Shown here piece by piece: positions 1 through 64,000 of a stretch of 64,000 nt of DNA. Origin of the DNA: Sphyrna mokarran. Lineage: Eukaryota. Both the position numbers and the translations under genes were made by a program. Below the pieces are notes generated by a model that was given only the letters and a program-made list of their open reading frames with translations, had not been told where the DNA came from and ran no database searches. The DNA lies in assembly GCA_024679065.1 (NCBI GenBank), contig JAGIQG010000002.1, positions 117,862,001-117,926,000 of the forward strand, given 5' to 3'. Every line of letters starts with the position of its first letter. Position 1 is the first letter of the stretch.

Positions 1-1322
1 GCTACAGTGTCTATCGACATTTACTTTTTCATAAGCAGTTTGTTGCTGGCGGAGAGCTTTGGGATATACTGAGAATGTGAAAGGTACTATATAAATGTAC
101 ATTTGTCTATTGTTTAAGATTGCTGTGCCAGCTATTTAATTTCAAACTGACCTCCTCCCTTCATTGAGTTCCAGCGCTGGAAAATGCAACAAATTTTCCA
201 TTTACTTCATCATTGTTGAAACAACTGTTGTAGGGCAGCATAAAAAAATCCCTTCCTATGTTCTAATCTACTGCCATTCATAACGTTTACAAAGAATGGC
301 ATCGAAATAGCAGAGTATTAAGCATTGAGAACATGTAGTGAGGAGAACCTTTAGAAAACATGAGAAGTGGTGATATATAAATCCAAATCTTTATTACTTT
401 CCCTTCTCTTTGTTTCCTCTTCTATCATCCGTTTTTAATTTTTATTTTTCAGTTGTCAATATTTCCTGGTATTGCAATTCCTGGTTCTGTTGTATTTTAG
501 TGAACATTCACCCTGTGCAATTGGATTTGGATAAGACAGTACAGCACTATTAAAAATACAGCCAAACAGAAGCCTGTGTCAAGGAGGTTCATATGACTGG
601 CTGGATATTGTTAATTGTATAGAGTTAATGTAGTGGTTATGGGCACCTGGGGACCTGACAATACACAACAGACGCTGATGAAATGTTTATGTTCTTAGTA
701 AATAATTCCGACTGAGCAATTCTTTGTTCGTTCTCCAAAGACCATTTACAGCCCCAAAAAAGTAGTCGGCTGCTGTTCAGCTGTTAACTTGCAAGGGTTG
801 TATGTCACTAGCTGCTGTGTTCAATTGAAACAGGTGGTCTTATAATGGGACAGTGAGTGGGTACTCACTTCATTTTGTTTTCAGTGAAGAAATGCCTTAA
901 CAAAAGGCTTGTGTTTAATGTAGCTGTACACCTGCTCAGTGAGTCTATTGGGTAAAGAGAGCTGAGTCCCTGGCCAGAATTTTCCAGCCCCTCCCGCTAG
1001 CAGGATTTCCCATCCCTCCAAAGTCAGTGGACTTTTGGAATGACTTGTCGGTTTGGAGCCAGATAATCCTAGCCTCTGATTCTCCTAAAGAGGGTCAAAG
1101 AATCAGTGTAAAAACTTAATTTACAAAAACCTGCATGGATCATTCCTCAAAGAGGCAACATTTGATAAACTAACACCCTTGCTGGTTATGTTGTACAGAT
1201 TATGGCATTAAATCTGTGATTTCGTATTGGATATCTCCTTATACAAGTGGAAGTTCCCAATGACTGGCATTCTGCATTCTAGAAAAATCCTTACCACATT
1301 TTCTAATTATTTTTGTATGTTA

Positions 1323-5482: not shown

Positions 5483-6385
5483 GGGCCCAATTTTTGTCAT
5501 TAAGTCGTGCCTGTTTTCAGACACAAAAACTTGGTAAAGTCAGGCATGAAGTGAGTAGCGCAATACGTGTCTGTCTCCCTATTGGTTCCCCTTTACCAAG
5601 GCCCGAAAATGGCACAATCAGGACCATGCCCAAAATGGGCACAACGGTCATGTAATTGTATTTTAATTTATTTAATGGGCCGCCTGCCCAACCTTACTGG
5701 CACTTTTCTCTTTACGACCATGTTCGCCCATTTAGAATCAGCACGAAAGAGACATGCTCCACAAAAATCCAGTTTGGGCTTTCCAATTAATGAGGAGGTA
5801 AATGCCATGTATCCAACGGCTCTCTGCTGGGTGGGTGGATCTGAGTGCTTGAGATCGGTTAGGGAAGGGAAGTCTGCTGCCACTCCGCCTGAGATCAGTG
5901 AGGGGGATGGGGGAATACTCTGACAGCGATCTACTTGAGATCAGTTGGGGGAGGTGAAGGGGAGTCTGCTGCCACTCTGCCTCAGATCAGTGAGGGAGAA
6001 GGGGAAGTCCGCTGCCATTCTGCCTGTGATCAGTGAGGGAGGAGGAGCGGTCCACTCCCACTCTGCCTGTGATCAGTGGTGAGGGAGTGGAGGGATAGGA
6101 GGATCAGTAATGTTATGGAATAGGGCAATGTCAGGGGGTGGCATTATCTGGCCTGGGAGCAATGTGGTAGGGGAGCTGCATTTTATCTTTTTTCTCTGCA
6201 CATGTGTAGTTGGAGGTGCCGATTGGAGCTACAGGATTTCAAATGCATTTACCCCACTTACAAGCTTCTGCAGTGTGATTCAGAACTGGTGATATTTTTT
6301 CAGGCAGAATGTTTATGGGGGTGCCTGAGAACGGGTCTAAAAGTCAGATCTGAAACACTCCCGGTTTTACGCAGCACTTAGAATC
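5483..6385. mobile_element. GC-rich non-autonomous DNA-transposon-like element with internal ~40-bp tandem repeat
   Basis: Begins GGGCCCAATTTT. GC-rich body resembles 21660-22570 and 28770-29455. Contains repeats of GGGAAGTCTGCTGCCACTCTGCCTGAGATCAGT. Confidence 0.4.
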
Positions 6386-11966: not shown

Positions 11967-12231
11967 GTGGGAATATCAGCATAATTATCATTATCTTCAC
12001 ATGATACTGGGGATCGGGATTGTCAGATGTTATCAGCAATATTTTGTTATTACTTTGGATACTGCAGATTTACAAACAAGTATTTTAAGTACGTTCTCGT
12101 TCAAAAATAGATCATTTGTAGCTGTGTGACTCCATTCTGTTGTTTTAAATGGTAGTTTGCGGAACCACGGGTATGTTAACAAGCCACTCAATTTAATGTG
12201 ATGCCCGTAATAAAAGAGAGTCCTACAAATG

Positions 12232-12430
12232 CTGGAGGTTTGAAATAAAAGCAGAAAGTGCTAGAAAACCTCAGCCAGTCTAACAGCATCTGTGAAGAGA
12301 GAAACAAGAGTTCACAGCCAGGTCTCGTACACCCCATCACCACTTCCAGCATAACTGGAGAATCCCAGCCATAGGGCAGATTGGAGAATTCCAGTCCATG
12401 TTTCGAGTCCAGTATGATGCTTCTTCAGGA
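12232..12430 (-). mobile_element. Penelope-type pseudo-LTR remnant with degenerate hammerhead motif, interrupted by a short insertion
   Basis: Minus strand reads CTGAAGAAG...GGACTCGAAAC, then an insertion, then ...TTTCTCTCTTCACAGATGCTG...CTGAGGTTTTCTAGCACTTTCTGCTTTTATTTC. Same family as 13093-13200 and 49497-49685. Confidence 0.55.
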
Positions 12431-12444
12431 TTCTTGAACTATAA

Positions 12445-12755
12445 GTTGGACTAGTGATCTGCTAACATGAGCTTAAATCTTAATTTAGCAATCGAAGAAT
12501 TTAAATACCATTGATTAAATAAATTGGGAGTGTGATTTTAAAGAAAAGCTGGTATCAGTAAATGTAACCATGAAACTACTAGATTGTTGTAAAAACCCAA
12601 TTTGGTTTACAGATGTATTTTAGGAAAAAAAGTCTATGATCCTTAACTGATATGACTCTATATGCGCAGAAATGTGGTTAATCTTAAACTGTTCTTTTGA
12701 AATAGCCTAGCAAACTATTATGTTGTATTGAGGTGAGCAATAAATGCTGGTTTTG
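12445..12755 (+). mobile_element. tRNA-derived SINE (second family; copies also near 27310-27460 and 36070-36405)
   Basis: Shared GGACTAGT, CCATGAAACTAC...TTGTAAAAACCC, GAAATAGCCTAGCAA and GCAATAAATGCTGG blocks between the copies. Confidence 0.6.
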
Positions 12756-13092
12756 TGAGGGACCCTATTTCACCTTTGTTGTTTTTATATATGGTTATTA
12801 CTTAAAAGCATCTGCACATGAGCAGTCATTTCTAAAGTGCACACTGAAACTTATTTGCAACTGACAGACCTTCTCTATAAGTTGTGAAGGATAGCTACAG
12901 ACAAATGGATGAAGAAAACCACATTAGTGATCTATATAGGCAGAATTATTTATCAAAGACCATTGTTATGATTTTGAACCTGCATTCTCCACAAGCGCAA
13001 ACAGCTCCTTGAAATGAGAGTCTCGTCAGTGAGACTTTACTTTCTAATTCACCCACTTCCACCCCAGTCCTTGCGGCCCTGTAAAATCTTAG

Positions 13093-13200
13093 CAGTAACT
13101 CTCTTTGTCTCTCCACAGATGCTGCCAGAACTGCTAAGTATTTCCAGCATTTTCTGCTTATTTTACACACACCTAGCATCTGCAGTACATTGATTTTGAA
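13093..13200 (+). mobile_element. Penelope-type pseudo-LTR 3' part
   Basis: TCTCTCCACAGATGCTGCCAGAACTGCTAAGTATTTCCAGCATTTTCTG...AGCATCTGCAGTA, inverted relative to the 12232 copy. Confidence 0.55.
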
Positions 13201-30247: not shown

Positions 30248-30388
30248 GTCATGGGCAAAGTACCCACTATATCTATAAATAAGACAGAGGGATGTCACAT
30301 ATACCTCAGTGAAGAGTCTTTAGGATGTGAGATTATCAGTGCCAAGTCTTCTGAAATGAATGTCCTAATTCCTCAGGATGATGATTAC
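30248..30388 (+). CDS. CAP2: CAP2 exon: [47 protein letters not shown]
   Basis: TTTACAG acceptor, GTAAGT donor, phase 0 to 0. Confidence 0.97.
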
Positions 30389-33709: not shown

Positions 33710-33793
33710 AAAGAATATCCAATCCCTGAACAGTTCAAGACTACGTGGAATGGTTCAAAACTGCTGACCGAAGCAGCAGAGAACGTTGGCTAA
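33710..33793 (+). CDS. CAP2: CAP2 last coding exon: KEYPIPEQFKTTWNGSKLLTEAAENVG*
   Basis: CCCTTGTAG acceptor, stop TAA at 33791-33793. PIPEQFKT.W.GSKL.TE is the CAP C-terminus. Confidence 0.96.
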   Translation, partial: KEYPIPEQFKTTWNGSKLLTEAAENVG

Positions 33794-38000: not shown

Positions 38001-38473
38001 AACAGCTCTCTGAAGTAGGACCTCTTGTTCCTGATGGACAGAAATCCAACCTGGAGGCTATTAATGGCCATTTGGGCGTGAAATGTCTGCAGGACTGCCA
38101 TTGCTGTCCTCAATGGGCTGCCTGCCCTAACTTGGGGAATCTGTCTCCTAATATAATTCAGTTTTGTGGAACTTTTTTACATAGCTGTGAAGAAGGCTTT
38201 AGGTTTTGTCTCATTGGCAGTTTATGAACTGTTTAAAGAATAATGTTTCTTTGAAGTGGTTTTAAATACCAATTTGTATATTTTGATAGATTTATGCAAA
38301 ATTAATAAGATTAAGGGGCATTTGAATGGATTTTTTGGATGGTTTCATGAACTTTTCAAAAACCTGCAAGTATAATTACCGAGTTCAAGAGTTCTGTCCG
38401 TGGTGGGTACTAGAAGAGTGCTTCAAAGGGGCCCATCAGATATCTGGACTTTAAATCAATAAAAAGGTGAAAG

Positions 38474-39618
38474 CATAATGTCCAGATGACAATACTGTCA
38501 GATTCTCAATACTGTTGAATGCAGTATTCACTTTAAAAATGGCGCCAGCACATACCATGGCATGACCTGATATCACCTCCGATGTCTGTATATCTGCTTC
38601 TGCTCTCTCTGTGTTTGGTCCCTGCACCTACTGACTCTTAGTTGGCCAGCTGCTGGTAGATCACGTTCAGCTTGTTGCTCTGAGTTCAAGTGGTGGGACC
38701 TGTTGCCTGGCCACAATATTCAAACTGTAGTTCCACCTAGATGACAATTCCCTAATTTTACAGTAGAATTTGAATAGGATTTTGTTTATTCAAAGAGACA
38801 AAGTTACTGCAATATATAAATGATAACCACTACCTACAAGGTGACACCATGCATCTGGACTGGTAGTAAATATTTTAACCTGAACCAATCCAAATATCTG
38901 AAGTGGGATTAGGATATTGATACCTGTTAGGGTCCACAATTAAATATTACCCTCAGTCAAAAGTCTTACAGGTGATTGTAAATGTTACCCACAAAAGAAT
39001 TATGTATACTTAAGTGCTTGATTTAGGAAGTAAAGAAGCAAGCAGATCAGTTTGAAAGATCGTAGGTTGATTTTTTTAATACTCAAATGGAGAATTGTAA
39101 GAACACATTCTTATATACCTACAATCATGACACTTATAAGATTGCTATGTTTTGGATTGTGGACTCTAACAGGCACCAATATCCTAACCCCACTTCAGAC
39201 ATTTGGATTGTTCAGGTTAAAATGTTAACCACCAGTCCAAATGCATGGTGTCACCTTATAGGTTTATCATTTATATATTGCAGTAACTTTGTCTCTTTGA
39301 ATAAACAAAATCCTATTCAAATTCTACTGTAAAATTAGGGAATTGTCATCTAGGTGGAACTACAGTTTGAATATTGTGGCCAGGCAACAGGTCCCACCAC
39401 TTGAAATCAGAGCAACAAGCTGAACGTGATCTACCAGCAGCTGGCCAACTAAGAGTCAGCAGGTGCAGGGACCAAACACAGAGAGAGCAGAAGCAGATAT
39501 ACAGGCATTGGAGGTGATATCAGGTCATACCATGGTATGTGCTAGCACCATATTTGAAGTGAATACTGCATTCAACAGTATTGAGAATCTGATTGTAATG
39601 TGTTATCTGGACTTTATG
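38474..39618. repeat. Long inverted repeat: arms ~38474-38940 and ~39156-39618, ~215-bp spacer
   Basis: Direct reverse-complement match, e.g. TGTTGCCTGGCCACAATATTCAAACTGTAG versus CTACAGTTTGAATATTGTGGCCAGGCAACA. Confidence 0.97.
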
Positions 39619-41079
39619 GTAAAATCAAAGAAATCTGGTGGTCTGTGCCAAAGTCTGCCTGACAACAAGGCTTGGTTGATGGGGTGTTAAAGATTAAATG
39701 AAGGTCTAGGTTGTTTTGCTGGGTAGAAGGTGTGTGTGGGGAGAGGAGGGGGAGAGATTTGTCAACATTGCCACGCCATTATTAGATTTTTGAAGAATAG
39801 TGAGGTTAAAAATCCATTTTGTGCCCAACACAAAAGAATTTGCAATTCTCCCAGCTCCTTTCTTAATGGTGTGAACTGTTTCACAGCAGGCGTCTTCCAT
39901 GGGCTGGTGGGGTAGGGGTGGGGCATTGCTTAGGCTGGGCCAGGTATCCTCAGGTCAGGATCATTGCTGGTTTGGGGTCATGTGGCAAGCATTCTCCCTG
40001 CCTGCTGAAAGACAAGGTCACAGATGTCGTACCTTCCTACCCTGCCACTTCTCAGCTGGAAAGGCTCCGTGGTTTATTGTGGACTCCCGTCCCAGCCCCA
40101 CTAACAGTCACAAGCACCTGGCAGTTGTCATTCCTAATCAAGAGAGCTCAGAAGATGCTAACACAGCTTTGCACACTGCTTGAACTCCATGGTGTTTCCC
40201 GTAATGGCTGTCCGTTGCATAGAAGAAGGTGCTCCCCTATCATCTGTCCGACCTGGACGCTATGTTTGGAAGCCACTTTGCACCAAATGCCCAGGTGGGT
40301 ACATGCAGGTTTGTACTTTACATTTATCCTCAATGAGCACCTTCCTACAGCCACCCTTGTGCCAGAGCACCGAGTCCAGTCTGCTTCACACTGCTGCCGC
40401 TGGCTTTTGGTAACAGAGATCTGTATCCTGGGAGATCCAGCCATTTAGGAGCTGCTCTGTACTGAATACCACTGAGCATGCAACTGCACTGGGAGTGCAG
40501 AAGGTATTGTGCTGCATCATATGATGGGAGGGTACAGCCCTGCAGGACACCTTTGGTGACCATGAGGGAGGAGTGTCCGTGGCTGTTGAGGTGATGATGT
40601 GATAACAGCAGCCATTTGAGGTGGAGCATGGCACCAGAAGTTCAGATACATGGGGATATGGGGTGCTGGCAGGGATTGAGGGTCCCAGAATGGACAAAAT
40701 CACAGACTTTCTTTCACTCTCTCCTTAACCCACCTCCCCCACTGCCCTCCATACTTCCTGCAGAGCAAAAACGGATCTTGGATTAGAGCTATCAGAGCTG
40801 GCAGCAATCATCATTGCTGCTATGGCAGTTGGCAGACATTGTTACCTATGGCACACCCAACCCAGACCAGAATCTACACCAGGACAACAGGGGGCTGTTA
40901 GTCCGAGTAAGGATTTGGCCGCATGTTGGCCTGCAGGGAGGGTAAAAGACAGCAAAGGAGAGGTCCTAGCAGTAGAGGACACACGTGTCGTTCCATGAAC
41001 TGGCAGACGCCATGTGCTGCTGAAGGCTTCACCTGCACTTGGCAACACCTAAGCCAGTCCTCATGGATCTGGCATCCTA

Positions 41080-41370
41080 TGGGGGAAGAGGCACCCACTC
41101 TCACTGGCTGTTAAGGTGACAGCTGCCCTTAACCTCTATGCCACTGGTCATTCCAGGGCTCCAGCAGGGACCTGTGTGACATTTTGCAGGCATCAGGCCA
41201 CAGCTGCATCTGGGAGATGACAAATGCCCTGTACTTCCAGGCAAGGCAGTACATCCATTTTGACCAAAGCCAAACCCAACAAGAAGCCCAAGGTGAAGAC
41301 TTTGCCACCATCACTGACATGCCACCAGTTCAAGGGACTATAGATGATATGCACAGCACCTGCTGGCCCC
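41080..41370 (+). pseudogene. Harbinger/PIF (HARBI1-like DDE) transposase fragment
   Basis: Across one frameshift: HPLSLAVKVTAALNLYATG/SFQGSSRDLCDILQASGHSCIWEMTNAL...YIHF...FATITDMPPVQGTIDDMH, resembling the Harbinger GSFQ and GAID.TH motifs. Confidence 0.75.
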
Positions 41371-41724
41371 ATGCAATCAGGGTCAGATTGTGAAAGGAAG
41401 GCCTGAGGAAAGTGGCAGTTGCACTGAAGGGGGAATGGGAGGGTAGGGGGTTGGTGGAAAGAAGGAAAACTGGAATGGAGAGGTGGAAAAATAAAAATGA
41501 AAAAGAAGGACAATAAAATGGATGAATGAGATGAAATGAAATGGAATAAAATGAATGAAAATGGGATGAAGGTGGAGGAGAGAGTTCATCCCCTGAACAA
41601 CAATAATGTGCACCACTGTTCTCCCATTTTGATCATTTAATGGACACTCTTACACCTTTTCAGCCTTCTGTATCCTCACTTACCTTCTCTTTATCCAATT
41701 CCACACCCTTGACTGATAGGCAAA

Positions 41725-41997: not shown

Positions 41998-42789
41998 TCT
42001 TCTCCCCTCCCACACCACCCATCTCAAGGGTTGCACTGACTTTACCCAGGGTTATGGACCTAGGTTGGCCATGCCAGTGAGTGAAGCTCAATTGCACCTG
42101 CACTATGGTGTGCAAGCCTCTGAGTTTGGACCAAGATCTGGAGTCTCGCTGCAATCACCCGTTGTGTCTCAAGCATGATCCTAAGACATTGTCATTCCTA
42201 AACATATTGTGGATGATTCAATTGGTATCATAGTTTTAATAGAACCTCAGCTAAGCGGTGATGATGCCTTCCCCTAAGTGAAGTCTCCCTACCTGACCAT
42301 ACCTTCTATGACTTTCCCCATTAAGACCATGCTTATCACCAAATGACACCTTGTCCTGCCTTCCTACTACTTTCTCCTTCTTTGAACATCTCACCTTATC
42401 TTGGTCATCTCAACTCTTGCTCAAGATCTTTATTCCGTACTGCAGATCCAAGTGCAATAAAAGTTTTCTCAAGGAGCCATCTTCACTGTTTTCCTCTCTC
42501 AGCAACAGCACCAAACGATTTCTCACATGATTTCAATATGCACTCCAACTCATCATGCTCTCTTCTTTCTTATTTTATTGCTCTTTTACCCACTCATAGG
42601 CTGGAACTCTACCAACTCAACTGCCACAGAATCAGCACAGGCAAGGGTCCAAAAATGGAAATCTCCATTGACCTTGGGTGGGAATTTCCAGTCTCGATTG
42701 CAGAGAGGCTCCTGATCTTGGTCCAGACTTAGTGGGCCATCGCTAAGGGCTCGCACACCATGGTGTAGCGAGCGAGGCTGTAAAATCAT

Positions 42790-43587
42790 CCAGAGAACAG
42801 TGACCACAATACCACACAACTCTGCCATAGCAACCTCTGCAAGACGTGCTGGATCATCGACATGGATGACATCATCAAACGTGAGAACACCATTCACCAG
42901 GTACACGGTACATACTCTTGCAACTCGGCTAACGTTGTCTACCTAATACGTTGCAAGAAAGGATGTCCCGAAGCATGGTACATTGGGAAGACCATGCAGA
43001 CACTATGACAGCGGATGAATGAACATCGCTTGACAATCACCAGGCAAAACTGTTCCCTTCCTGTTGGCGAACACTTCAGCGGTCACGGGCATTCGGCCTC
43101 CAACCTTCAGATAAACGTTCTTCAAGGGGCCTTCACAACACACAACAGCGCAGAGCCGCTGAGCAGAGACTGATAGCCAAGTTCTGCTCACGTGAGGATG
43201 GTCTTAACAGGGATCTTGGCTTCATGTCACACTATCTGTAACCCCCATGACTTGCCTGGGTTAGCAAAAAACCACACTTACTGTGCCGTCTGGAGACAAT
43301 ACACATCTCTCTAACCTGTGCTCAGTGCTCCTTCCACTTACATTGTTAGCCACTTTAAGACTTGAATAGCAGGTTAGGGGTAAAGATTTGCATTCTAATC
43401 AGTAATCTGTAAACAGTCTGTGCTGGTATGTGTGCTTTTGGAGACCAGAACACCTCATTCGCCTGACGAAGGCTATAAAGCTGAAAGCTTGCGAGTTTAC
43501 TATCAAATAAATCGGTTGGATTTAAAACTGGTATTGCAGACTTCTTACTGTGTTTGCCCCAGTCCAATGCCGGCATCTCTACATCAT
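42790..43587 (+). mobile_element. 5'-truncated Penelope-like element (GIY-YIG endonuclease + 3' pseudo-LTR), Neptune-like
   Basis: Translation CHSNLCKTC...SCNSANVVYLIRCKKGCPEAWYIGKT.QTL*QRMNEHR...PVGEHF...EQRLIAKF...GLNRDLGFMSHYL*. One CGA>TGA-type stop at 43006 and one frameshift. A Cys-rich linker precedes the GIY-YIG domain. Confidence 0.92.
43457..43496 (+). ncRNA. Minimal type I hammerhead ribozyme motif in the PLE pseudo-LTR
   Basis: ATTCGC-CTGACGA-A-GGCT(ATAA)AGCT-GAAA-GCT-T-GCGAGT: stem I, core, stem II and palindromic AGCU stem III. Confidence 0.75.
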
Positions 43588-43699
43588 AAATATACGGGGT
43601 TACAGGGATAAGGCTTGGGTAAGATGCTTTCTCAGAGAGTCAGTGCAGACTCAACGGATTGAATAGCCTGCTGCAATGCCCCAGAAGACTGGCTGCTGC

Positions 43700-44068: not shown

Positions 44069-44561
44069 ATGGCGGAGAGCGGCTCAGGCTCAGCTTTGGG
44101 CCCTGGTTCGGGCCGGGATGGATGCTGCTCCTCCTCCTCTAGCCCCAGCCCGGCTGGGAAAAGTCAGGCAGCCCCCGGGACCGCGGGCGCTGGGGAATAT
44201 TGTCGGAAGGTGCAGGAGTGGCTGTGGCAGTATTATAGCTACGTGCAGTGGCAGAGCTGGATGATGATGATGGCCCCGCTGCCTCCCTATTGCCCCTTCC
44301 CCGGCAGCGGCGGGGCCCGGCCGGGCGAGGGGGAGGAAGCCGCCGCCACCACCACCACCACCCTGCCCGGTGCCTACAACCCTTTCCCGATTTACCCTCC
44401 CTACTTTACTCTAGGGGTGGCCGCAGCGGTGCCGCCGGCTTCGGGTGAACACCCTCAGCAGCAGCAGCAGCAGGAGGTGGCGACAGCTTCGGGGAACCGT
44501 GTCGGGTTGCCGGGCACCAATGCACAGCAGCAGCCGGCGGCAGGGAATGTGCACCCCAGAG
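44069..44561 (+). CDS. FAM8A1: FAM8A1 coding exon 1 (MAESGSG...EYCRKVQEWLWQYY...NVHPR)
   Basis: Good Kozak context ACAATGG, GTAAGA donor in phase 1. EY.R.V.EWLWQ.Y motif of FAM8A1. Joins in frame to 60048. Confidence 0.9.
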
Positions 44562-45067: not shown

Positions 45068-46418
45068 AGTGATCAGCAAGTTTGCAGACCACACAAAGAT
45101 GGCTGGACTTCCGGATAGTGAAGAGCATTGTCAGGTGATGCAGCAGGACATAGGTTGGTAGCTTGGGCAGACAGATGGCAGATGGAATTCAATCCTGATA
45201 AATGCGAGGTGATGTATTTCGGGAGAAAGAATGTAGCGGACAGGTATATGATAAAGGGTAGACCTATTAAGAGTATAGAAATGCAGAGGGACCTGGGGGT
45301 GCAGGTGAACAACTCTCTGAAGGTGGCAGAGCAAGTGGAGAAGGTTGTGAAGAAAGCATATGGTATGCTAGCCTTTATAGGAATGGGTATAAAGTACAAG
45401 AGCTGGCCTTTAATGTTGCAGTTGTATAAAACGTTGATTAGACCTCATTTGGAATACTGCGTCCAGTTCTGGTTGTCCTACTACCGGAAGGATGTGGAGA
45501 CTCTGGAGAGAGTGCAGAGGAGGTTTACCAGGATGCTGCCTGGAATGAAGGTCTGAGTTACCAGGAGAGGTTAGGCAAATTGGGACTGTTTTCCTTAGAA
45601 AGACGTAGACTTAGAGGAGATCTAATAGAGGTGTACAAGATTATGAGGGGTATAGATAGAGTAAACAGGGTTAAGCTTTTTCCTAGGACGGACTTGAATA
45701 GCACGAGGGGTCATGGGCTTAGGGCGAGGGGGGTAAGGTATAATTTGGATGCTAGAGGGTGTTTGGGGTATGGAATGCACTGCCAAGTAAAGTGGTGGAG
45801 GCAGGTACTGTGGAGTTATTTAAGAAATACTTAGATGGGCACATGAACAGAATGGGAATGGAGGGGTATAGGAAACTGATTTAAAATAGGGATCATGAGC
45901 CTTGGGAGTCCCTGGGAAGTGTGTAAATAGATGATGATATTGATGTACTTGTTTTCATCCTACAGGTGCTTTGGTCCACCTTGTTGTCTAACGAGGGGCA
46001 TACACGCGATGGGTCGTGAGAGGGCTGCTCTTGGATTTTTTGAGAGTATCCTAGTGCTTCACGTCGTTAGTGTACGCTTGACCTGGACCATTTGATGGGC
46101 AACACGACAGCTCAGTGACTATCGCTGTGCTGTGCAGATACATGGATTTGGGCCTGTGTCTGTGGGAGTTTGCGCATTCTCCCCGTGCTTGCGTGGGTTT
46201 TCTCCGGGTGCTCCGGTTTCCTCCCACATCCCAAAGATGTGCTCTTAGGTTAATTGGCAAAACAAATTCTCCCTAAATTGTCTCAAATTTGGTTTTTAAT
46301 CCATAGATCTATAAACATGGACAGGGATCGCGGGTAGAAGTGGGAACATCGGGGTGGCGGCACGGGCTCGTTGGGCCGAAGGGCCTGTTTCACGTGCTGT
46401 TTTGTTCTTTGTTCCTTG
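45068..46418 (+). mobile_element. 5'-truncated CR1 with an unusually long 3' UTR containing a V-SINE-like domain
   Basis: ISKFAD...WADRWQMEFNPDKC...RRLRGDLIEVYK, then ~200 bp unique, then V domain and (TTTGTTC)n tail. The host repeat resumes on both sides. Confidence 0.85.
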
Positions 46419-46534
46419 ATCTCAATTCCACTCTTGTCTGCCCATCCCTCTCCCATAACTCTAGTCTCCCAGATAAAGCTGTCAAACTCAGCCTTGCATA
46501 AATTAAATGGCCCAGCCTCCACCGTTAAAATAAA

Positions 46535-46825
46535 GTTAAAGTTTATTTATTGGTCACAAGTAGGCTTATATTAACACTGCAATGAAATTACTGTGAAAAT
46601 CCCTTCATCCCAAGATCTGCCTGTTTGGGTACACTGCGGGAGAATTTAGCATGGCCAGTGCACTTAACCAGCATGTCTTTCGGACTGTGGCAGGAAACTG
46701 GAGTACCAGGAGGAAACCTACACAGGCACTGAAGAACGTACAGACTCCGCAGAGATAGTGACGAAGCCAGGAATTGAACTGGGTCTCAGATGCTATGATG
46801 CAGAAGTGCTAACTGCTGTGCTGCT
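46535..46825 (-). mobile_element. V-SINE with L2-like tail
   Basis: Reverse complement of the 13532 family. Confidence 0.75.
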
Positions 46826-49189: not shown

Positions 49190-51840
49190 GGAGATGATAC
49201 AAAAATGAAATTAAAGTATCTTTATTTGAATGTGCATAGTGTCTGCAATAAGCTAGATGAGCTAATGGTGCAGGTTGAGATAAATGCTTCAGATCTAATA
49301 GTTATTACTTGAGACATGCTTATGGTAAACAGGATTAGGAAATAAATATTCCAGCATTTCAAAAGGCAGCTTGAATGGAAAAGGAGGAGGAGTAACCTGT
49401 TTGTAAAAGATGTCGTGAGGATGTTAGAAAATATCTTGGTTTAGAAGATCAAAATGTAGAATCAGTATCAGTGAAGTTTAAGAATAGTGAGAATCAAAAA
49501 ATGCTAGAAAGTCTCAGCAGGTCTGACAGTATCTGTGAGGAGAGAATAGAGTATTTCAAGTCTAGACAATACTTTGTCATCTAGACTTGAAACATTGGTT
49601 CTATTCTCTCCCCACAGCTATTGAGATTTTCCAGAATTTTCAGATTTTGTTTCAGATTCCTGCATCTGCAGTATTTTGCTTTTATCTAAGGATCAGAAAG
49701 CACTGGTGTGGGTAGATTATAGGAATGCTAGTTATCCCATTGAGTCAATTGCTTTTGTTGCATGCTCCAATGTAATGAATTGTGGGGGCTTTAAACTTGA
49801 TATAAACTGGACAAGTTGGCAAAGATGGTTTGGAAGTTACTTTTGCAACAATTTCTTTGAGCAATATGTTTTGGAACCAACTAGGAATGAAGTTATTTTA
49901 GGTCTAGTAATGTATAATGTTGAATTAATTAGCAATCTCATAGTAAAAGTTCTGCTGGGAAATAACTGGTTGAATCCTGCATGTTTGCATGACATACTTC
50001 AACCACAAACGGGAATCTTAAACACATCAATTACATAGGAATGAGATGCAAGTTATTTAAGATTGATTGAGTAAATAGTCTAAAAGAGGTGAAGGAAAAT
50101 AGTCAGTCAGAAGTATTTAAAGAAACAATTCAAATTGTTAAACAAAAATACTTTCCATTGAAGAACAAAAGCTCAGTGAGAAAGATACATCTGCGGCTCA
50201 CTAAAGAGATTAAGGATAGTATTAGATTAAGAATATTGGGAATTATATATAGTACAGGTAGTGCATCTCAAAACCAGCAAGCTTGGAACTGAACCCATGC
50301 TGGATTTCAGATCTTGCTGGTTTAAAATAAAAGATCTAAGGCATTTCAGTATCTGTGATGGGATTAGATAATGATTGAAGTGATCAAGTGTAAGGATGAA
50401 ACTGGTTAGTGTTTTGGTAAGGCCACGTATTTAAAACTGCTTTTCTTTGGGTTATTGGAGCATGAGAGAAATACTTGAGATGGAAAATGTACAGTGATGT
50501 GCAGCTCCATGCACTTTTCCAAGCTGGGTTGGGTGGGGCAATAGTCACTCAGACCACAAAATGAGAAAAGACGGGTACGCATTATTAGATAACTGTTCAT
50601 CATACCACCTACGAATGCAAGAAGTGCACATAAACTGGTGATGTTTTTTCACTACTTTAATAACACTTAAAATTTTTATGTTGTCAATTTAAAACATTCA
50701 ATTTTCAGACATCAGTTTTTGAATAACTGAATTTGAGATTATGTATTTGTAGTTAGTTCGACATTAGTCGTTGGGGAGGTGCTAGAATCTATTAAGGAAG
50801 TCTTGCCATGATTTCAAAGTGAATTGATTGTTATGTTGAGCCAAAGTCAACATGGTTTTATTGAATTGAAATACTATTTGACAAATATATTGAATTTTTT
50901 TAGAATGTTGTATACCTGGATTTTCAAAACTGAAGCTGCCACTCAAATGGTTGATAAATTAATGGCTCAGAATTGGAAGATAATATATTAGCATGGTAAC
51001 TGATCACAGGAATAAAAGAATATGGTTAAGCAAGCTGTGACTTGTTGAGTGATGCAAGGATCAATGACTTGGATCTAGAACTCAAGTTCAGTCTAAGGCT
51101 GTGGGGCCAGTCATTTAAGACTGAGATGAGGAGGCATTTCTTCTCTCAGGGTTGTGAATCTTTGGAATTCTCTATTGCATTGGGTTGTGGAAGTTTCTAA
51201 CTTTTTTATCAATACAATGTTCGGAGAGATGCAAGCTGCGAGGAAGATGCAGACAGAAAAGAGAGACAGGGTTAGGAAGTGGACTACAGAATGGAATATG
51301 GTATACATAGATGTGAAGCTGTTCACTTTGGTTGTAATAATAGAAAAGAAAAATACTTTAAAACTTATAAATGTTGATGTTTAGCAGAGCTTGGATATAC
51401 CTGTAGAATGAATGCAGGAACTTAGCATGCAGGTTTGCAATCAGTTAGGATGGCATATTACATGTAGGCCTACTTTCCAAGGGGGTTGAGATACAAGAAG
51501 TCTTGTTTTGCTGAAATCACACTTGAAGTACTGTGCAAAGTTTTGGTCCACATAAAAGGAAGAATATACCTGTCTTTCAGATGGTGCAGTAATTTGAATC
51601 CTGAGATGAGAGGGTTGTCCTATGATGAGAGGGTGCATGATATATTTCTATGTTATCTAGAGTTTAGAAGAATGAGATGATTTCATTGAAATGTAGAAGA
51701 TTCTGAAGAGGGTTGACAGAATAAACATGGAGAGGTTGTTTCCTCAGGCTACATGATCTTGATCTCTCACGTGCAGCCTCAGGATGTGGAGCCAGTCATT
51801 TAGGACTGAGATGGGGAGGTGTTTCTTCACACAGGGTTAT
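49190..51840 (+). mobile_element. Highly decayed old CR1 (EN to RT), host of younger insertions; resumes at ~55894-56090
   Basis: LKYLYLNVHSVCNKLDEL...DLIVIT, FFEQYVLEPTRNEVIL and MRGLSYDER fragments. Confidence 0.7.
49497..49685. mobile_element. Small head-to-head inverted pair of Penelope-type pseudo-LTRs
   Basis: CTGTGAGGAGAGAATAGA...TTTCAAGTCTAGA mirrored by TCTAGACTTGAAAC...TCTATTCTCTCCCCACAG. Confidence 0.65.
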
Positions 51841-51924
51841 AGAACATAGAACATTACAGCACAGAACAGGCCCTTCGGCCTTCGATGTTGTGCCGACCAA
51901 AATAAAAAGCAATGCCCCTCCAAA

Positions 51925-54710
51925 CAAAACCATTCCCTTCTCTTCCATATACTTATCAATTAACCTCTTAAACGCCACCAAACTTGGCGCATCTACAACA
52001 GCTGCAGGCAGGGCATTCCACTCCCTAAATCACTCTTTGAGTAAAGAACCTACCTCTGATATCCGTCCTATAACTCATACCCCTTAATTTAAAGCTGTGT
52101 CCCCTAGTGCTAGCTTTCTCCATCCTAGGAAAAAGGCTGTCACTGTCCACCCTATCTAAACCTCTAATCATCTTATATGCTTCAATAAGATCCCCTCTTA
52201 GCCGCCTCCTTTCTAACGAAAACAACCTCCAATCCTTCAACCTCTCTTCATAGGACCTGCCCTCCATACCAGGCAACATCCTGGTAAACCTCCTCTGTAC
52301 CCTCTCCAATGCCTCAACATCTTTCTTATAATGTGGGGACCAGAACTGCACACAATACTCCAAGTGCGGCCGCACTAGAGTTTTGTACAGTTGCAACATG
52401 ATGCTGCGGCTCCTAAATTCAATCCCCCTACCAATAAAAGCTAAGACTCCATATGCCTTCTTAACAACTTTATCCACTTGACTGCCTACTTTCAGGGAAC
52501 TATTGACACATACACCAAGATCCTTCTGTTCCTCAACACTATTAAGAGCCCTACCATTAGCCCTATACTCTACACATTTATTGTTCCTGCCAAATTGCAT
52601 TACCTCACACTTTTCCACATTAAACTCCATTTGCCACCTCTCGGCCCAGCTCTGCAACTTGTCCAAGTCACTCTGTAAACTATAACACCCCTCTTCACTA
52701 TCTACCACGCCACCGACTTTAGTGTCATCTGCAAATTTACTGATCCATCCCTCAATACCCTCATCCAGATCATTTATAAAAATTACAAACAGCAGGGGCC
52801 CCAAAACAGACCCCTGAGGCACACCACTCGTCACCGAACGCCACGATGAATATCTCCCATCAACCACCACCCTCTGTCTTCTATCTGCCAGCCAATTTCT
52901 AATCCAATTAGCTAAATCACCCTCTATTCCACACATCTGCATTTTCTGTAGAAGTCTTACATGGGCCACCTTATCAAAAGCCTTACTAAAGTCCATATAT
53001 ACTACATCAACCGCCTTACCCCCATCCACCTCTCTGGTCACTTTCTCAAAAAACTCAATGAGGTTAGTAAGGCATGAACTACCCTTCACGAAACCATGCT
53101 GACTATCCCCAATCAATTCATTTCTCTCTAAATAACTATAAATCCTATCCCTAATAATTCTCTCCAATACCTTGCCCACCACAGAAGTAAGACTCACTGG
53201 CCTATAATTCCCAGGAAGGTCTCTCTTCCCCGTCTTAAACAATGGGACCACATTCGCTATCCTCCAGTCCTTCGGAACCACACCCGTAACCAACGAGGAC
53301 CTGAAGATCAGAGCCAGAGGCTCTGCAATCTCCTCTCTTGCCTCCCAGAGAATCCTAGGGTAAATCCCGTCCGGCCCAGGGGACTTATCCAACTTCAAAC
53401 CCTCGAGAATATCTAGCAAATCCTCCCTATCTACTTCAATACTTTCCAGTTTGCTACCCTGTACCTCAGTGTTCTCCATAACTACATTTACATCACCCTG
53501 CGTGAATACCGAAGAGAAATATTTATTCAGTACCTCTCCAATCTCCTCAGGCTCCAAGCACAACTTCCCACTGCTGTCTATGACTGGCCCTAATCTTGCC
53601 CTAACCAATCTTCTATTCTTAACATATCTAAAGAAAGCTTTAGGATTCTCCTTAATCCTATCAGCCAAAGTCTTCTCGTGTCCCCTTTTAGCTCTCCTCA
53701 ACTCCCTCTTTAGCTCCCTCCTGGCTAATCTATAGCTATCCATTGCACTAAATGAGCCTTCAAGCCTCATCCTGACATAAGCCTCCTTTTTCCTTTTAAC
53801 CAGCAAATCAACTTTTTTCGTGCACCAAGGTTCTCTTACTTGACCATTTCCTCCTTGCCTGACAGGGACATACTTATCAAGGACCCGCAGCAGCTGCTCC
53901 TTGAATAAGCTCCACATTCCAGATGTTCCCAGTCCCTGTAGCTTCCTAGTCCAATCTATGCACCATAATTCTCTCCTGATGGCCTCATAATTACCCTTCC
54001 CCCAGCTATACCTACTGCCCCCAGCTTCATGCCTATCCCTGTCCATCACTAAGGTGAACGTAACCGAATTGTGGTCACTATCACCAAAATGTTCACTAAC
54101 TTCCAAGCCTAACACCTGGTCTGGCTCATTGCCCAGCACCAAATCCAATGTAGCCTCACCTCTAGTTGGCCTATCTACATACTGAGTCAAAAAAACCTTC
54201 CTGCACACTCTGTACGAAAACTGACCCCTCTAACGAGCTAGAGCTATAGCTATTCCAATCAATATTAGCAAAGTTAAAGTCCCCATCACAATTACCCTAC
54301 TACTTTCACTCCTAATCAGAATTGACTTTGCAATCCTTTCCTCAACCTCTCTAGAAATATTAGGAGGTCTGTAAAAGACTCCCAACAGGGTGACCTCTCC
54401 TCTCCTGTTTCTAATCTCAGCCCATACTACCTCAACAGACAAGTCCTCATCAAATTTCTTTTCTATCACCGTGATACAGTCTTTGACCAATAACGCCACT
54501 CCTCCCCCCCTTCTACCTCCTTCTCTACTCCGACTAAAGCATTTGAACCCCGGAACCTGCAACATCCATTCTTGTCCCTGCTTACCCAAGTCTCTGAAAT
54601 GGCCACAACATCGAAGTTCCAGGTACTGGTCCAAGCTGCAAGTTCCTCCCCCTTATTGCAAATACTCCTTGCATTAAAGTATACGCATTTCAAACCATGC
54701 CCCACCCCAT
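51925..54710 (-). pseudogene. CR1 ORF2 (APE endonuclease + reverse transcriptase), four single-base frameshifts in this sequence
   Basis: [51 protein letters not shown] and FADD motifs over ORFs 54466-54705, 54230-54634 and 52025-54208. Confidence 0.93.
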
Positions 54711-57740: not shown

Positions 57741-58100
57741 TGATTTTTTTGATTTATTGTTGTCATGTATTAGTATACAGTGAAAAGTATTGTTTCTTGT
57801 CTGCTGTACAGACAAAATATAGTCCTTGTGGAGAAGGAAATAAAAGAATTCAGAATGGAGTGTTACACCTATAGCCAGGGTGTAGCGAAAGATCAACTTA
57901 ATGAAAGATCGGTTCATTCAAAAATCTGATGGCAAGAAGGAAAGAAGCTGTTCTTGAGGTCAGTTGATATGTGACCTCAGATGTTTGTACCTTTTTTCTG
58001 ATGGAAGGTGGTGGAAGAAAGAATGGGGTCCTTAATTATGTTGGCTGCTTTTCCAAGACAGTGGGAAATGTAGACAGAATCAATGAATGGGAGGCTGATT
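57741..58100 (-). mobile_element. Rex1/Babar-type LINE 3' end
   Basis: Same sequence family as 17418-17745. Confidence 0.7.
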
Positions 58101-58489
58101 AGAAGTTAAAGGAAGATGGAGACCTTGCTTTCTTAAATGTAGCATTTGGTTGCAATTAATTATTCTAAACATTCATTTCTGCTTTGAGTAAAGAAGTTTT
58201 TCTTTTAAATTTTTAATTTAACTTTATAATCTCTGGTCTTAATTTCAGAGCTAATTGTGAAGTAATAAACTGGAATATGCCTTAGATAATTTACGAGGTT
58301 ATCCCTTTATCCACTTTCTTTTCTGAGAATATCAAATTATAATACATTTTTCTAGGTTTACACTCAGTATCAGTTTTTCCCCCTCAGTTAAAGTGTCACT
58401 GTTTATTTAGTCTTCATGGAGTTTGTCATTGAAGAGTATCATTGTCTTTCCATTGGCATATGCTCATCACATTCTACATGTCAAATCTC

Positions 58490-59067
58490 AAGTACAGGAT
58501 CAGGGATGTATTGTTACAATATAAAGAGCATTGGTGGCACCTAGAGTATTGTGTGCAATTTTGGTGTCCTTTTCTGAGGGAAGGATGCTCATACTTTTGA
58601 AAGAGTGCAACGAAGGCTTACCGAGCTGATTCCGGGATGGTGGGACTGATATATGAGGAGAGATTGACTGAGCTAGAATTGTTTTCGCTGGAGTTCAGGC
58701 AAATGGGAGAGGATCTCATTGAAACTTATAAAATTCTAATATAATAGGTGCAGGGAAGATATTCCCGATGATGGGGGGGTCAGAATCAGGGATCACAGTC
58801 TGAGGATTCAGGGTAGGCCACTTAGGGCGGAAGTGAGGAGACTTCTTCACTGAGAGTGGCGAGCCTGTGGAATTCATTACCACAGGAAGTAGTTGATGCC
58901 TAAACATTGAATGTATTCAAGAGGCGGCTAGGCACAGCACTTGGGGCAAATGGGATCAGAGTATGGGGAAAAAGCAGGATTAGGCTGTTGTGTTGGATAA
59001 TTGTAATGAATGGTGGAGCAAGCTTGAAGGGCGAAATGGCCACCACCTGCTCCTATCTTCTATGTTT
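58490..59067 (+). mobile_element. Old CR1 3' fragment
   Basis: HLEYCVQFW...DLIETYKI...NVFKRRL fragments and CR1-type tail. Confidence 0.8.
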
Positions 59068-59169
59068 CAAGTATTGTACTTCATTAGAGGTACAAACATC
59101 CTTTCCAAAAATCAGAGGGAAAGCGTACATTTTGTGCTAGGTTATTTTGACTTCTAGCCAGATTTCCGG

Positions 59170-59625
59170 ATGTATCACAGCTTGATATGGCTCCTGTCTG
59201 AGCAAGACTGCAAAAAACTACAAAAGATTGTCAATATAGCGCAATCCATCACACAAACCCCAGCCTCCCATCCATGCACTCTTGTCTATACTTCCCACTG
59301 CCTCAGAAAAACAGCCAGTATAATAAAGGACCCCATGCATCATGGACATACACTCTTCCACCTTCTTCAGTTGGAGAAAAGATACAAAAGTCTGAGGTCA
59401 TGTACCAACTGATTTAAGAACAGCTTCTTCACTGATGCCATCAGTTTTTTGAATGGACTTGTATTAAGTTGATCTCTCTCTACACCCTAGCTGTGACTAT
59501 AACGCTATATTCTCCATCCTTTCCTTTTCCCCTATGTATTCTGTGAACAGTATGCTCTGCCTGTATAGCACACAAGAAAGAATACTTCTCGTTGTGTACT
59601 AATACATCTGACAGATCAAATCAAA
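59170..59625 (+). mobile_element. Rex1/Babar-type LINE C-terminus + 3' UTR
   Basis: EQDCKKLQKIVNIAQSI...IIKDPMHHGHTLFHLL..KRYKSLRS..N.FKNSFF; TCAAATCAAA tail. Confidence 0.8.
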
Positions 59626-60047
59626 AAGCAACTTACAAGCACTGCAATTGAACTGTGGTGTTATCACAGAGTTATAACAACCTCAATTGCTCAGATACAG
59701 CACTTCCCCATAGGAAGTACATGATCAGGAACTTCAAAGGGAAAGTCCATGTTATCTAAATAGTGACACAAACTTATACACAGTTGGGGAAATGTATTTA
59801 TTTTAAGGGTGACATTTTCCTGTTTAAAAAATTAGCAGTATATCTTTTCATTGTCTATATAGGTGCTCCATTAATGTGGAATGATGGTGGAGAAGGAACC
59901 TCAAAGCCATAACCAACGTTTTCACTGGTTTGGAGGCAGTTTCCATGTTCCAGTAGATGCTGCAGAAAGAGAGCCTTTCTCTTGTGTATTTATTAAATGT
60001 GTGGCATGAATTTTGTTTTCAAATCAGAATTACTTTTGTTTCTAAAG

Positions 60048-60168
60048 GCCGTGAATACACTATTCCAACCCTGATGCATCGATTCCTTGCAGAGATGGTG
60101 GATTTTTTAATCCTGTTCCTGTTAAAAGCTGTCGTGGTGCTGACTGTGATGCATATCTGTGGGATCAA
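60048..60168 (+). CDS. FAM8A1: FAM8A1 coding exon 2 (start of RDD domain): (G)REYTIPTLMHRFLAEMVDFLILFLLKAVVVLTVMHICGI(K)
   Basis: TTTCTAAAG acceptor, GTAAGT donor, phase 1 to 2. Closely matches vertebrate FAM8A1 GREY.IP.L.HRF.AEMVDF. Confidence 0.95.
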
Positions 60169-62022
60169 GTAAGTAGTAGAACTCTTATTTACAACTGCAG
60201 CTTTTGTTCATAGATAATGTTGTAACACTGGTAAATCATGAAGGGGAGCATATCTATCATTTGAGTTGACCATGAATGAATCTAAACTGACAGTCAGTAC
60301 ATGAAATTGTCAGTTGCTAATTTACTTTATATTAGAATTGCTGCAATTTTTGATGAGCACCATAAGGTGATGTTTTGATGTCCAGTTTCTGTTTCTGTAC
60401 AAGGAAACTGTATGCATGTGTGTGCGCAAGTTCAGGATTAATTTCTCCAAGTATTTTGCTTGCAATTTTGCTCCTACTTTCAGCTGGAGTAACATGTGCC
60501 TAATAAAAACAGTGGGAAGTGACATTTTACACATCCTATTCTCAGGCATTTAAATAAAATTCAGCTTTTTGCACATGTTTTATTTTTGGGAATATTCCTT
60601 AATTTATTTTGGAGCTGGGCGATGCTGTCTAGATAGATGGATTGCAGATTGGGAGTGTGTTAGAGAACTGCAGCCTTTCTAAGGAAGTCATAAATTCACA
60701 AAAGCTGAAAATGAAATGGTAATAGGTGATACCAGTGAAATCCTGTGACTTACACTTTGGTTTGTGACAAATGGGTGACCCAGAAACATTCTAAACAGAA
60801 ATATTTTCTCAGCAGATTAATGATGTATTTCACCAGACCTGTAAGAATGAGTGTTTTTAAAAAGCAAAAACTCTTAAAAGCATTTAAAGGTCTGCCTAAT
60901 TTATTGATGCTTTGTGATAATCTATAGGATTTGGTACGATGTAGCATATTGTAGTTTATATGGTTCTATACAGTGCTGGAGAAGGTGGTGATCTCTAGGA
61001 CTCTGTGATACCATGTCATGTGATCTCTAGGACTTTACTCATTTATATAGAATGTGATTAAGTAGCCGTTGTTTTTAAGGACTTTGTCAGATCAGTATCT
61101 TTCAAGAATGATTTTTAAAAATCCCTTTTTAGCGAGCAGGAAACTGGTCACTACTGTAAGAAGGAGACGGTGAGCTTTTTTAAATACTCACTGACAAAAA
61201 AAGGTTAATTTAATCCACCATTGCAAGTTTGAGACAGTGGGTCACTGCTGATGTTTGAGGGAAAGAGATCCCACGTAGAATTGCAGGACTTCAGTGCAGA
61301 AGGAGGCTATCGTTCTATCATGTCCACACTGCTTTCCAAATGAACAATTCACGTAATGCTATTCTCCCACCTTCTCAAGCTGGCTGATTCTTCCTTTTCA
61401 CTTGAGCTTAATTCCCTTTTGAATATTTAACTTAAACCTGCTTCCTCTACACTCATAGGTTGTGTATTCTGGACCTTAATCACTTGCTACATGAAAAAGT
61501 TTTTCCTTGGTTCACTTTTATTTTGTATGCTACTTTAAATCTGTGCCCTCTCTTGATCCCTTCATGAGTGAGAATTATTTCTTCTTACATTCTGTGTCAA
61601 AATCCCTCGTGATTTTAAATATCTCAATCAGATGTCCTCTCAGCCTTATCTTTTCCAAGTCAAACAGTTTTAACTTCTCCAATCCATCTTTGTAACTGAA
61701 GTTCCAGAGAGTTCCACATTCGTGAATGTTTTCTGCACTCACTCCAATGCTTTCACACCTTTCCTGAATTGTGGGGCCCAGAATTGGATTCAGTTCTCCA
61801 ACTGACATCATAACTTTTTATAAAATTCATTTATAGCATGGGCATCACTGGCTAGGCCAGTATTTATTGCCCATCCTTAATTGCCCTTGAGATGATGAGC
61901 TGCCTTCTTGAACTGCTACAGTCTCTGTGGTGCAGATACACTTACAAAGCTGTTACATTAGAGTGTGCTCAGTAAAGGTTTACAACGCCAATTTTAAATC
62001 CAACCAATTTATTTGATAGTAA

Positions 62023-62062
62023 ATTTGCGAGCTTTCGACTCTATGGCCTTCGTCAGGCAAAT
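62023..62062 (-). ncRNA. Minimal type I hammerhead ribozyme motif (left arm)
   Basis: Exact reverse complement of 62811-62850. Confidence 0.8.
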
Positions 62063-62810
62063 GCAGTGTTCTGGTCTGCAATAGCATTCATATCAACACA
62101 GACAGTCACAGATTGCTGATTAGAATGCGAATCCTTACATCTAACCTGCTATTCAAGTGTTAAAGTGGCTAACAATGTGTGTGAAGGGAATCCTGAGCAT
62201 TGGTTAGAGAATTGTGTGTTTTCTCCAGACAGCACAGTAAGTAAGGTTTTTTGCTAACCCAGGCAAGTTACGGGGGTTACAGATAGTGTGTCATGAAGCC
62301 AAGATCCCTATTAAGACTGTCCTTGTGTGCGGAACTTGGCTATCAGTCTCTGCTCAGCGACTCTGCGTTGTCATGTGTCGTTCCGCACACGAGGACGGCC
62401 TTAATAGGGATCTTGGCTTCATGACACAGGGGTTACAGATAGTGTGTCATGAAGCCAAGATCCCTATTAAGACCGTCCTCGTGTGCGGAACGACACACGA
62501 CAGCGCAGAGTCGCTGAGCAGAGACTGATAGCCAAGTTCCGCACACATGAGGACAGTCTTAATAGGGATCTTGGCTTCATGACACACTATCTGTAACCCC
62601 CGTAACTTGCCTGGGTTAGCAAAAAACCTTACTTACTTTGCTGTCGGGAGAAAATACACAATTCTCTAACCAATGCTCAGGATTCCCTTCACACACATTG
62701 TTAGCCACTTTAACACTTGAATAGCAGGTTAGATGTAAGGATTCGCATTCTAATCAGCAATCTGTGACTGTCTGTGTTGATATGAATGCTATTGCAGACC
62801 AGAACACTGC

Positions 62811-62850
62811 ATTTGCCTGACGAAGGCCATAGAGTCGAAAGCTCGCAAAT
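62811..62850 (+). ncRNA. Minimal type I hammerhead ribozyme motif (right arm)
   Basis: ATTTGC-CTGACGA-A-GGC(CATAGA)GTC-GAAA-GCT-C-GCAAAT: perfect 6-bp stem I, intact core, predicted cleavage after C62844. Confidence 0.82.
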
Positions 62851-64000
62851 TTACTATCAAATAAATTGGTTGGATTTAAAATTGGTGTTGTAAAACTTTA
62901 CTGAGTTTACCCCAGTCCAACGCCGGCATCTCTACATCATGACATTAGTGTGTTCCAGGATTTTGACCTAGTGACAGTGAAGGAATGGCGATATATTTCT
63001 AGATCAGGATGATGTGTGGCTTGGTGGGGAAGCTCTGGTGATGGTGTTCCCATGTGCCTAATGCAATTGTTTTTCTAGTTGGTAGCAGTCATGGGTTTGA
63101 AAGGTGCTGCCAAGGAATCTTGGTAATTTCCTACAATGCATCTTAAAGGTGTTGCATACTGTTGCCACTTTGCCAGTGGTGGAAGAAGTGAATGTTTGTG
63201 GAAGGGGTATCAATTAAGTTGGTTACTTTGTCCTGGATGGTATCAAGCTTCTTGTATTGTTGGAGCTGTACTGAACAAAGCTAGGGGAATTTCACAGTAA
63301 CTTCATTGCAATGTTAATGTAAGCCTTGCTTGTAACTAATGAATAAACCTTTTAAAAACTTTAAAAAAAAAGTGGAGATCGTTCCATCATGTTGCTGACT
63401 TATGCCTGGTAGATGGTGGGTTGGCTTTGGGACTCAGGAAGTGAGTTACCCTCTACGTGATTCCTAGCTTCCTACCTGTTTTTGTAGTCACTGTATTTAT
63501 ATGGTTGGTCCAATTTAGTTATTGGTTAATAATAACCTCCAGCACGTTGATAGTGGATGATTCAGCAATAGTAATGCCATTGAATACCAAATGGCAATGG
63601 TTAGATTCTCTCTTGTTGGAGATGGTCACTGCTTGGTGAATGTTACTTGCCACTTATCAGTCCAAGCCTGGATATTGTTCAGGTCTTGCTGCAATTGGAT
63701 ATGGATTGCTTCAGTGTCTGAGGAGTCACAAATGGTGCTGAATGTTGTGCAATCGTCAGCAAACATCCCCACTTCTGTCCGTATGATGGCAGGAAGATCA
63801 TTGATGAAGCAGTTGAAGATGGTTGGACCTAAAACAGTATTCTGAGGAACTCCTGCCCTGGAACTGAGATGACTGACTTCTAACTACCCCTATCAATCTG
63901 CCTTTGTTTAGGTATGATAGCAGAGAGTTGATTTCCATCGACACTGTTTTGTTGAGGCCCCTTGAAGCCCAGTCTTTCATGGGCAGTTGCTCTCACCTCA

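Follow-up and report, generated by a model that had tools for sequence, protein, structure and literature searches.

An old, short inverted repeat in a shark genome with a core apparently homogenised by arm-to-arm conversion

The window, the 64-kb stretch of Sphyrna mokarran DNA analysed here, contains a gene-free inverted repeat whose core shows the main hallmarks of palindromes converted from arm to arm: it is a real locus, it is older than the split of this organism (A) from relatives B and F, and its arms are most alike within species. Our preferred reading, to which we assign a probability of about 0.8, is that an old fold-back duplication arose at a single locus in decayed repeat DNA before the A/B/F split and that its arms have been re-matched by non-reciprocal copying. 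The sequence comparisons indicate that the arms co-evolve through arm-to-arm conversion in the core, and the structure as a whole is probably a neutral mini-palindrome.

Results

Self-alignment of the locus gave two arms of the length first reported (about 465 bp) around a spacer of 215 bp (Table 1). The alignment has 469 columns, with 438 matches, 23 mismatches and 8 gap columns in 4 events, the inner end of the right arm being taken from the final alignment row. The 27 differences fall unevenly along the arms: the 241-bp core has 2, against 13 for the outer 112 bp and 12 for the inner 114 bp. These figures agree closely with the first-pass annotation, which by eye had seen about 140 identical bp within some 240 bp carrying two mismatches, flanked by more diverged, indel-bearing arm ends. 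The differences are clustered (20,000 permutations; p=0.0008 for the 142-bp identical run, p=0.0001 for the 241-bp window), and they stay so when the ragged outer 24 bp are trimmed (p=0.006 and p=0.00005, respectively). The inner edge of the core coincides exactly with a 5-bp indel at 38827.

Table 1. Features of the inverted repeat and its gene context (positions within the window)
Feature	Position	Strand	Basis
CAP_C exon	30248-30388		
Last coding exon of upstream CAP gene	33710-33793	+	
Left flank and end of the arm, holding 38-71-nt patches that have diverged relatives elsewhere	38221-38523	.	
Small DNA hairpin (-6.3 kcal/mol) at outer left end, from which the 12-mer direct repeat derives	38441-38488	.	
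Left arm of inverted repeat	38474-38940	+	Self-alignment; X1 contigs identical over 38504-38615 and 38797-39154
Homogenised core, left copy, 241 bp, 2 differences	38586-38826	+	Alignment, permutation, relatives
Identical run, 142 bp	38685-38826 (mirror 39264-39405)	+	Self-alignment
5-bp indel at inner edge of core	38827-38831	+	Self-alignment; comparison with relatives
Spacer, 215 bp, AT-rich (GC 0.30), faint residual self-symmetry	38941-39155	.	Orthologous in B, D and F (F: covered part)
Right arm of inverted repeat	39156-39618	-	Self-alignment; right-arm letters in X1 records 4, 6 and 7
Homogenised core, right copy	39264-39504	-	Self-alignment
Second 12-mer copy, an inverted copy of the small hairpin's 3' stem	39604-39615	+	
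Probable first coding exon of downstream gene	44069-44560	+	
RDD-like exon, sub-threshold	60050-60169		RDD hit, E=0.025

The faint symmetry that had been noticed in the spacer could be recovered, though weakly: it was significant in 4 of 6 scoring schemes, those aware of transitions (p=0.004-0.023), and p was 0.16-0.25 in the 2 plain schemes, the test being run on a spacer shorter by one base. Its score was reached by 2 of 571 control segments from the window, and the direct-orientation control was null. Past the outer ends, symmetry was confined to one 22-nt patch (p=0.01-0.03 over 60 nt), with no significance over 150 nt or globally. Nothing else in the 64-kb window matches the arms, and their six-frame translation contains no long frame, the frames being broken by stops. 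No tandem repeats were found near the locus; elsewhere, a tandem array with a 43-bp unit (about 5.3 copies) occupies 5846-6078, and 49527-49623 is a 97-bp imperfect self-complementary stretch (73%).

The repeat had been placed about 3.5 kb past the CAP2 poly(A) signal. A CAP gene does lie upstream, and its AATAAA motifs (35015 and 35248) precede the left arm by 3.2-3.5 kb. The CAP exon matches human CAP1, with no CAP2 entry among the matches, and an atlas search with the probable first exon of the downstream gene (44069-44560) returned no match. Going by synteny and the sub-threshold RDD hit, the upstream gene is putatively CAP2 and the downstream gene putatively FAM8A1.

Short-read contigs from run X1, the single listed run of organism A, the window's own organism, contain 0.89 of the sequence words, compared with 0.07-0.16 in 22 other runs; the listing included no RNA run, which is neutral as to expression. 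Five of the X1 contigs are informative (records 1 and 4-7). One leads from the left flank into the left arm, and a 112-nt bubble has branches with 0 and 7 differences, corresponding to the left and right arm versions (records 4 and 5). A collapsed contig of 241 nt is precisely the core, and record 7, at the expected length of 497 nt, crosses the spacer and changes strand at the fold-back. Long reads failing to span the structure had been named as a possible refutation; because short-read contigs, possibly from the assembly's own sample, rebuild the fold-back, it is not an assembly error. At the two core mismatches X1 has right-arm letters only, and the missing left-arm letters reflect either bubble removal or polymorphism of the left letters.

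The same contigs bear on copy number. No second long copy at ≥80% likeness was found in the roughly 96% of run X1 that was covered, older copies below that likeness lying outside its reach, and 38616-38775 is matched by the core contig only (19 X1 records). Since a single X1 contig covers the core, no young multi-copy family is involved, and the inverted repeat is real and single-locus at ≥80% likeness. Contig depth was rejected as a measure of copy number: it was 22.8 for the core against 15-16 for unique sequence, but 7.2 and 9.2 for the two bubble arms.

The outer ends of the repeat carry traces of older sequence. The 12-bp sequence TATCTGGACTTT, previously reported at 38441 and 39604, is indeed present at both positions, its sole two copies in the window, but it is a derivative feature, because a small hairpin at the left end and the large inversion that copies its 3' stem together generate the direct repeat. 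For four of 23 runs, contigs at 80% likeness were compared with the stretch from the left flank through the left arm to the spacer (at least 40 substitution rows). Short diverged matches (38-71 nt) stack at 38221-38291, 38383-38429 and 38439-38523, those at the arm end being present in all four runs, and some are apparently at the same loci in different organisms. Three contigs match the left flank and the arm end in line, with joints at other loci from 38263 to 38501 and from 38429 to 38501 (short sides, weak). These in-line matches suggest that the left end sits in an old dispersed repeat, of which 38221-38523 appears to be a remnant without a family name. The earlier statement that neither an ORF nor a recognisable TE explains the arms thus stands as regards long frames and needs amending for the left flank and the adjoining outer part of the left arm, which have short diverged relatives elsewhere.

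The whole 1.2-kb unit could have arrived as an ancient fold-back DNA transposon, non-autonomous and MITE-like with long TIRs, that is long dead and was converted only later, a scenario that departs from our preferred reading in origin alone and that we consider possible but doubtful. Diverged matches to the outer arm end (38439-38523) in 4 of 4 runs, the small end hairpin and the faint symmetry running through the spacer are all compatible with it. MITE or fold-back elements and ancient unclassified vertebrate repeats are likewise non-coding, with long inverted arms and distant relatives of their ends (PMC5753468). For the repeat described here, neither a multi-copy family nor diagnostic termini or a target-site duplication came to light. 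Further full-length copies were absent from the window, and no other copy matched over the core at ≥80% in X1 contigs, so that the multi-copy MITE or foldback family with long TIRs that the first-pass annotation had set against its own reading was not found at that likeness. A scan for 4-10-bp target-site duplications returned none at any tested end pair, the ends being eroded. No family name could be assigned, and the in-line matches suggest, weakly, that the old repeat crosses the left boundary of the arm.

Other mobile-element signatures were sought at the locus and recorded across the window. A reading of the recurring ATCTGGAC (5 in the window, 4 at the locus) as an IR/DR of Tc1 type was rejected because it had no other support. 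In a test for Penelope-like pLTRs, none of 8 hammerhead motif hits fell within 38400-39700; three of them lie in a second palindrome at 61968-62905 and its paralog. The arms of this second palindrome are identical at 453 of 463 positions around a 14-nt loop, each with a minimal-hammerhead-like motif (62056 -, 62817 +), and are 84-86% like a paralogous stretch at 43050-43600. The paralog as a whole (42760-43590) has a hammerhead-like motif at 43463 and lies about 500 bp before the first exon of the downstream gene; its upstream coding remnants, which gave nothing with Pfam, resemble the end of a GIY-YIG endonuclease. The second palindrome looks like an inverted pair of Penelope-like pLTRs, and opposite-strand dual hammerheads have been described (PMC4209133).

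Two LINE copies (1322-3223 and 51839-53744) lie 50 kb apart in opposite orientation with 95-99% identity, and a reverse-transcriptase-like frame of 734 aa occupies 52025-54229. We take this LINE to be of CR1/L2 type. In six-frame translation, 41085-41390 gives a decayed reading that we take to resemble a Harbinger/HARBI1-type transposase; Pfam returned nothing for two fragments of it.

Contigs from relatives B, D and F, about 6-8% diverged from A, carry the repeat or part of it. In B, one contig runs through an arm, switches strand into the spacer and ends with 18 nt of the inner end of the second arm, the arm being joined to the right end of the spacer by an opposite-strand joint. A left-flank contig of B would end, by its length and coordinates, on the same 30 bases that start the arm contig. 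In F, the left arm is joined to the left end of the spacer, and the outer arm end is joined to sequence that differs from the left flank but is similar to the right one. Both arm junctions are therefore present in B and F; D shows one arm only, with left flank, left arm and spacer followed by 387 nt in which no inverted piece was matched (run X6, record 25). That contig is 992 nt long, whereas a symmetric hairpin contig would have 997, a close value, and the absent second arm may reflect loss of the right arm, its replacement or a missed match. In each relative the repeat was seen without both arms end to end, as contigs collapse repeats. The arm junctions in B and F imply that the repeat predates the split of A from both, and it persists in at least 3 of the 4 lineages. 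Its absolute age would come to 32-160 My if yearly rates per site between 1 and 0.2 x 1e-9 are assumed; the published rate is given per generation only (7e-10; PMC10587355).

The arms of these relatives reveal concerted change. At 11 or more sites, at least 9 of which fall within the core, the two A arms share one letter and the right-side arm of B and the left arm of D share another (38606, 38610, 38611, 38641, 38709, 38806, 38812, 38815, 38824, 38845 and 38883 among the rows listed), and the left arm of F has the relatives' letter at 6 of the 7 sites it covers among those rows. Of 33 differences from B, at least 14 are common to both A arms by subtraction (15 in a second tally, one inside an indel). 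Arms evolving independently would be predicted to show at least 15 core differences where 2 were observed (P=2.7e-5). The probability that 9 sites mutated in parallel is about 7e-13. With parallel mutation negligible, the shared sites mean that the arms group by lineage and not by side, the same test as has been applied to primate X palindromes (PMC8327919). The lineage of each shared change is unpolarised, and either direction requires copying between arms.

The core has 2 differences in 241 bp within A, whereas 9 or more shared differences separate it from B and D; in the outer zones, with about 10% mismatch, the arms are no more alike within species than between them. About 4% of the core shows shared change, and outer-zone mismatch is about twice that. 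The within- versus between-species comparison of arms that had been proposed for related sharks thus groups the core arms by lineage across B, D and F.

Among the rows listed, there are 10 sites where the A arms differ and the relatives have the letter of the right arm. These sites, which include both core mismatches (38630 and 38684), are accordingly new changes in the left arm. At the indel 38827-38831 the relatives lack 1 nt compared with the left arm, so it is probably for the most part a deletion in the window's right arm, and the two larger inner indels also look like right-arm deletions. The shared changes comprise 3 W-to-S, 5 S-to-W and 2 W-to-W (p=0.73), showing no GC bias in a small unpolarised sample. 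In the left arm (38630-38931), 6 of 10 polarised private changes are G-to-A, which are small numbers; an APOBEC-like or ADAR-compensated reading of this excess was rejected because contexts are mixed and changes few.

Paired changes of this kind would arise from conversion and from selection on an RNA duplex alike, and sequence alone cannot fully separate the two. In the latter case the arms would be kept matched by selection for a long dsRNA from CAP read-through (endo-siRNA, ADAR substrate, or a role in termination or retention), with conversion supplying the co-evolution. The plus strand does fold into one long stem (-831 kcal/mol), as expected of any such repeat, and the locus lies within a few kilobases of the CAP polyadenylation motifs, with a further AATAAA at 39300 and ATTAAA at 39693 (weak, given 16 such hexamers in 10.4 kb). 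Its retention in at least three lineages would fit such a role, and the plant locus Ea-IR offers a precedent (PMC11746138). Divergence from B, however, is much the same in the left arm (7.6%), spacer (6.3%) and flank (6.5%; Fisher p=0.51). For the right arm it is 3.7-7.4%, depending on substitutions beyond the rows listed, against 6.4% for flank plus spacer, in arm tests of low power (p=0.085-0.59), and A's right arm may be closer to B at the low end (p=0.085), leaving room for mild constraint. On the sense strand the mismatches would comprise 11 A-C pairs of 23, but the 7 G-U and 5 others set beside them reveal no bias (subsets p=0.21-0.33).

Half of the stem, moreover, tolerates about 10% mismatch, the perfect part stops at an indel like a DNA-repair tract, Rfam at gathering score gave no hits in the window, and D has no matched second arm. 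A hairpin-RNA function for the arms is thus unlikely on these comparisons. Equally improbable is the fuller version, in which a gene-free mini-palindrome has been kept for tens of My and the 460-bp duplex from CAP read-through is diced or edited, regulating termination or the neighbouring gene. If true, the locus would be what plant read-through inverted-repeat loci are, but in a vertebrate, the compensatory changes coming from gene conversion, and processed duplex in RNA data would make the locus matter much more. Of the two parts of the original inference, the old fold-back with arm-to-arm conversion gains support from the relatives' contigs, and selection for a hairpin RNA gains none from divergence, wobble pairing, Rfam or D.

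Near-perfect palindromes are a common assembly error and the core is 99% identical, but a fold-back chimera produced in assembly, or a single duplication of recent date, is scarcely credible for arms that differ at 27 places, whose two versions and junction are present in short-read contigs, that recur in B and F, and whose differences are clustered where a recent duplication would give uniform ones.

Discussion

[quoted passage not shown] As in those, the arms are closer within than between species, the spacer is unhomogenised and the structure is orthologous across lineages. Primate palindromes have arms of 8-140 kb, are up to 99.99% identical, mostly bear genes and lie on sex chromosomes (human P6 being almost without functional elements; PMC3723533), whereas the arms here are 0.47 kb, gene-free and 93% identical overall, with only the 241-bp core converted. 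The GC-biased shared changes of human P6 (PMC3723533) were not seen here, in a small unpolarised sample.

Shorter systems offer further parallels. Concertedly evolving short inverted repeats have been described in nematomorph mitochondria (PMC6649704), and hairpin maintenance via template switching has been proposed (10.1101/2021.04.15.439925); in both, as here, close arms change in pairs, and repair or template switching has been put forward. Those repeats are perfect, tens to 142 bp long, with tiny loops and inside genes, whereas the shark repeat is nuclear, intergenic and imperfect, with a 215-bp spacer. The Arabidopsis Ea-IR likewise lies just 3' of a gene, between two genes (PMC11746138). 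For Ea-IR, read-through, siRNAs and chromatin looping have been shown, in a plant that has an RNA-directed methylation pathway (PMC11746138); the shark repeat is known from sequence alone. Searches of a literature collection with few subscription journals found no report of a repeat of this kind, either from sharks or for the locus itself.

Under the reading that we prefer, an old fold-back duplication maintained by copying, the arms would have been re-matched by gene conversion during break repair, or by fold-back or template-switch repair. The 215-bp spacer could ease copying between the arms; in yeast, short spacers favour intramolecular fold-back (PMC6103520). Such copying would need near-perfect homology. 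Consistent with this requirement, three close inverted pairs of old dispersed repeats used as controls (57746-59627, 12220-13188 and 46165-46748) remain unhomogenised, with 71-74% identity. A likely conversion barrier is the 5-bp indel at 38827, and its appearance in A's lineage, together with mismatches 38581 and 38585, may have confined conversion to the 241-bp core. The outer zones would then have drifted to their present mismatch, with little conversion since the split, and the spacer and outermost ends would have escaped much earlier, leaving a nested gradient. Such a gradient, from a near-random spacer through outer zones at about 10% to a core below 1%, fits a shrinking conversion window. 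The repeat might persist without a selected function, conversion renewing it and deletion being slow.

The locus would represent a sub-kilobase, gene-free case of homogenisation within a species, for which giant palindromes of sex chromosomes are the best-known examples. It would record the retreat of conversion as indels accumulate, with 241 bp still converted between diverged flanks and a spacer that has lost nearly all symmetry. For slowly evolving genomes it also suggests a caution, that near-perfect hairpins can be old without needing an RNA function.
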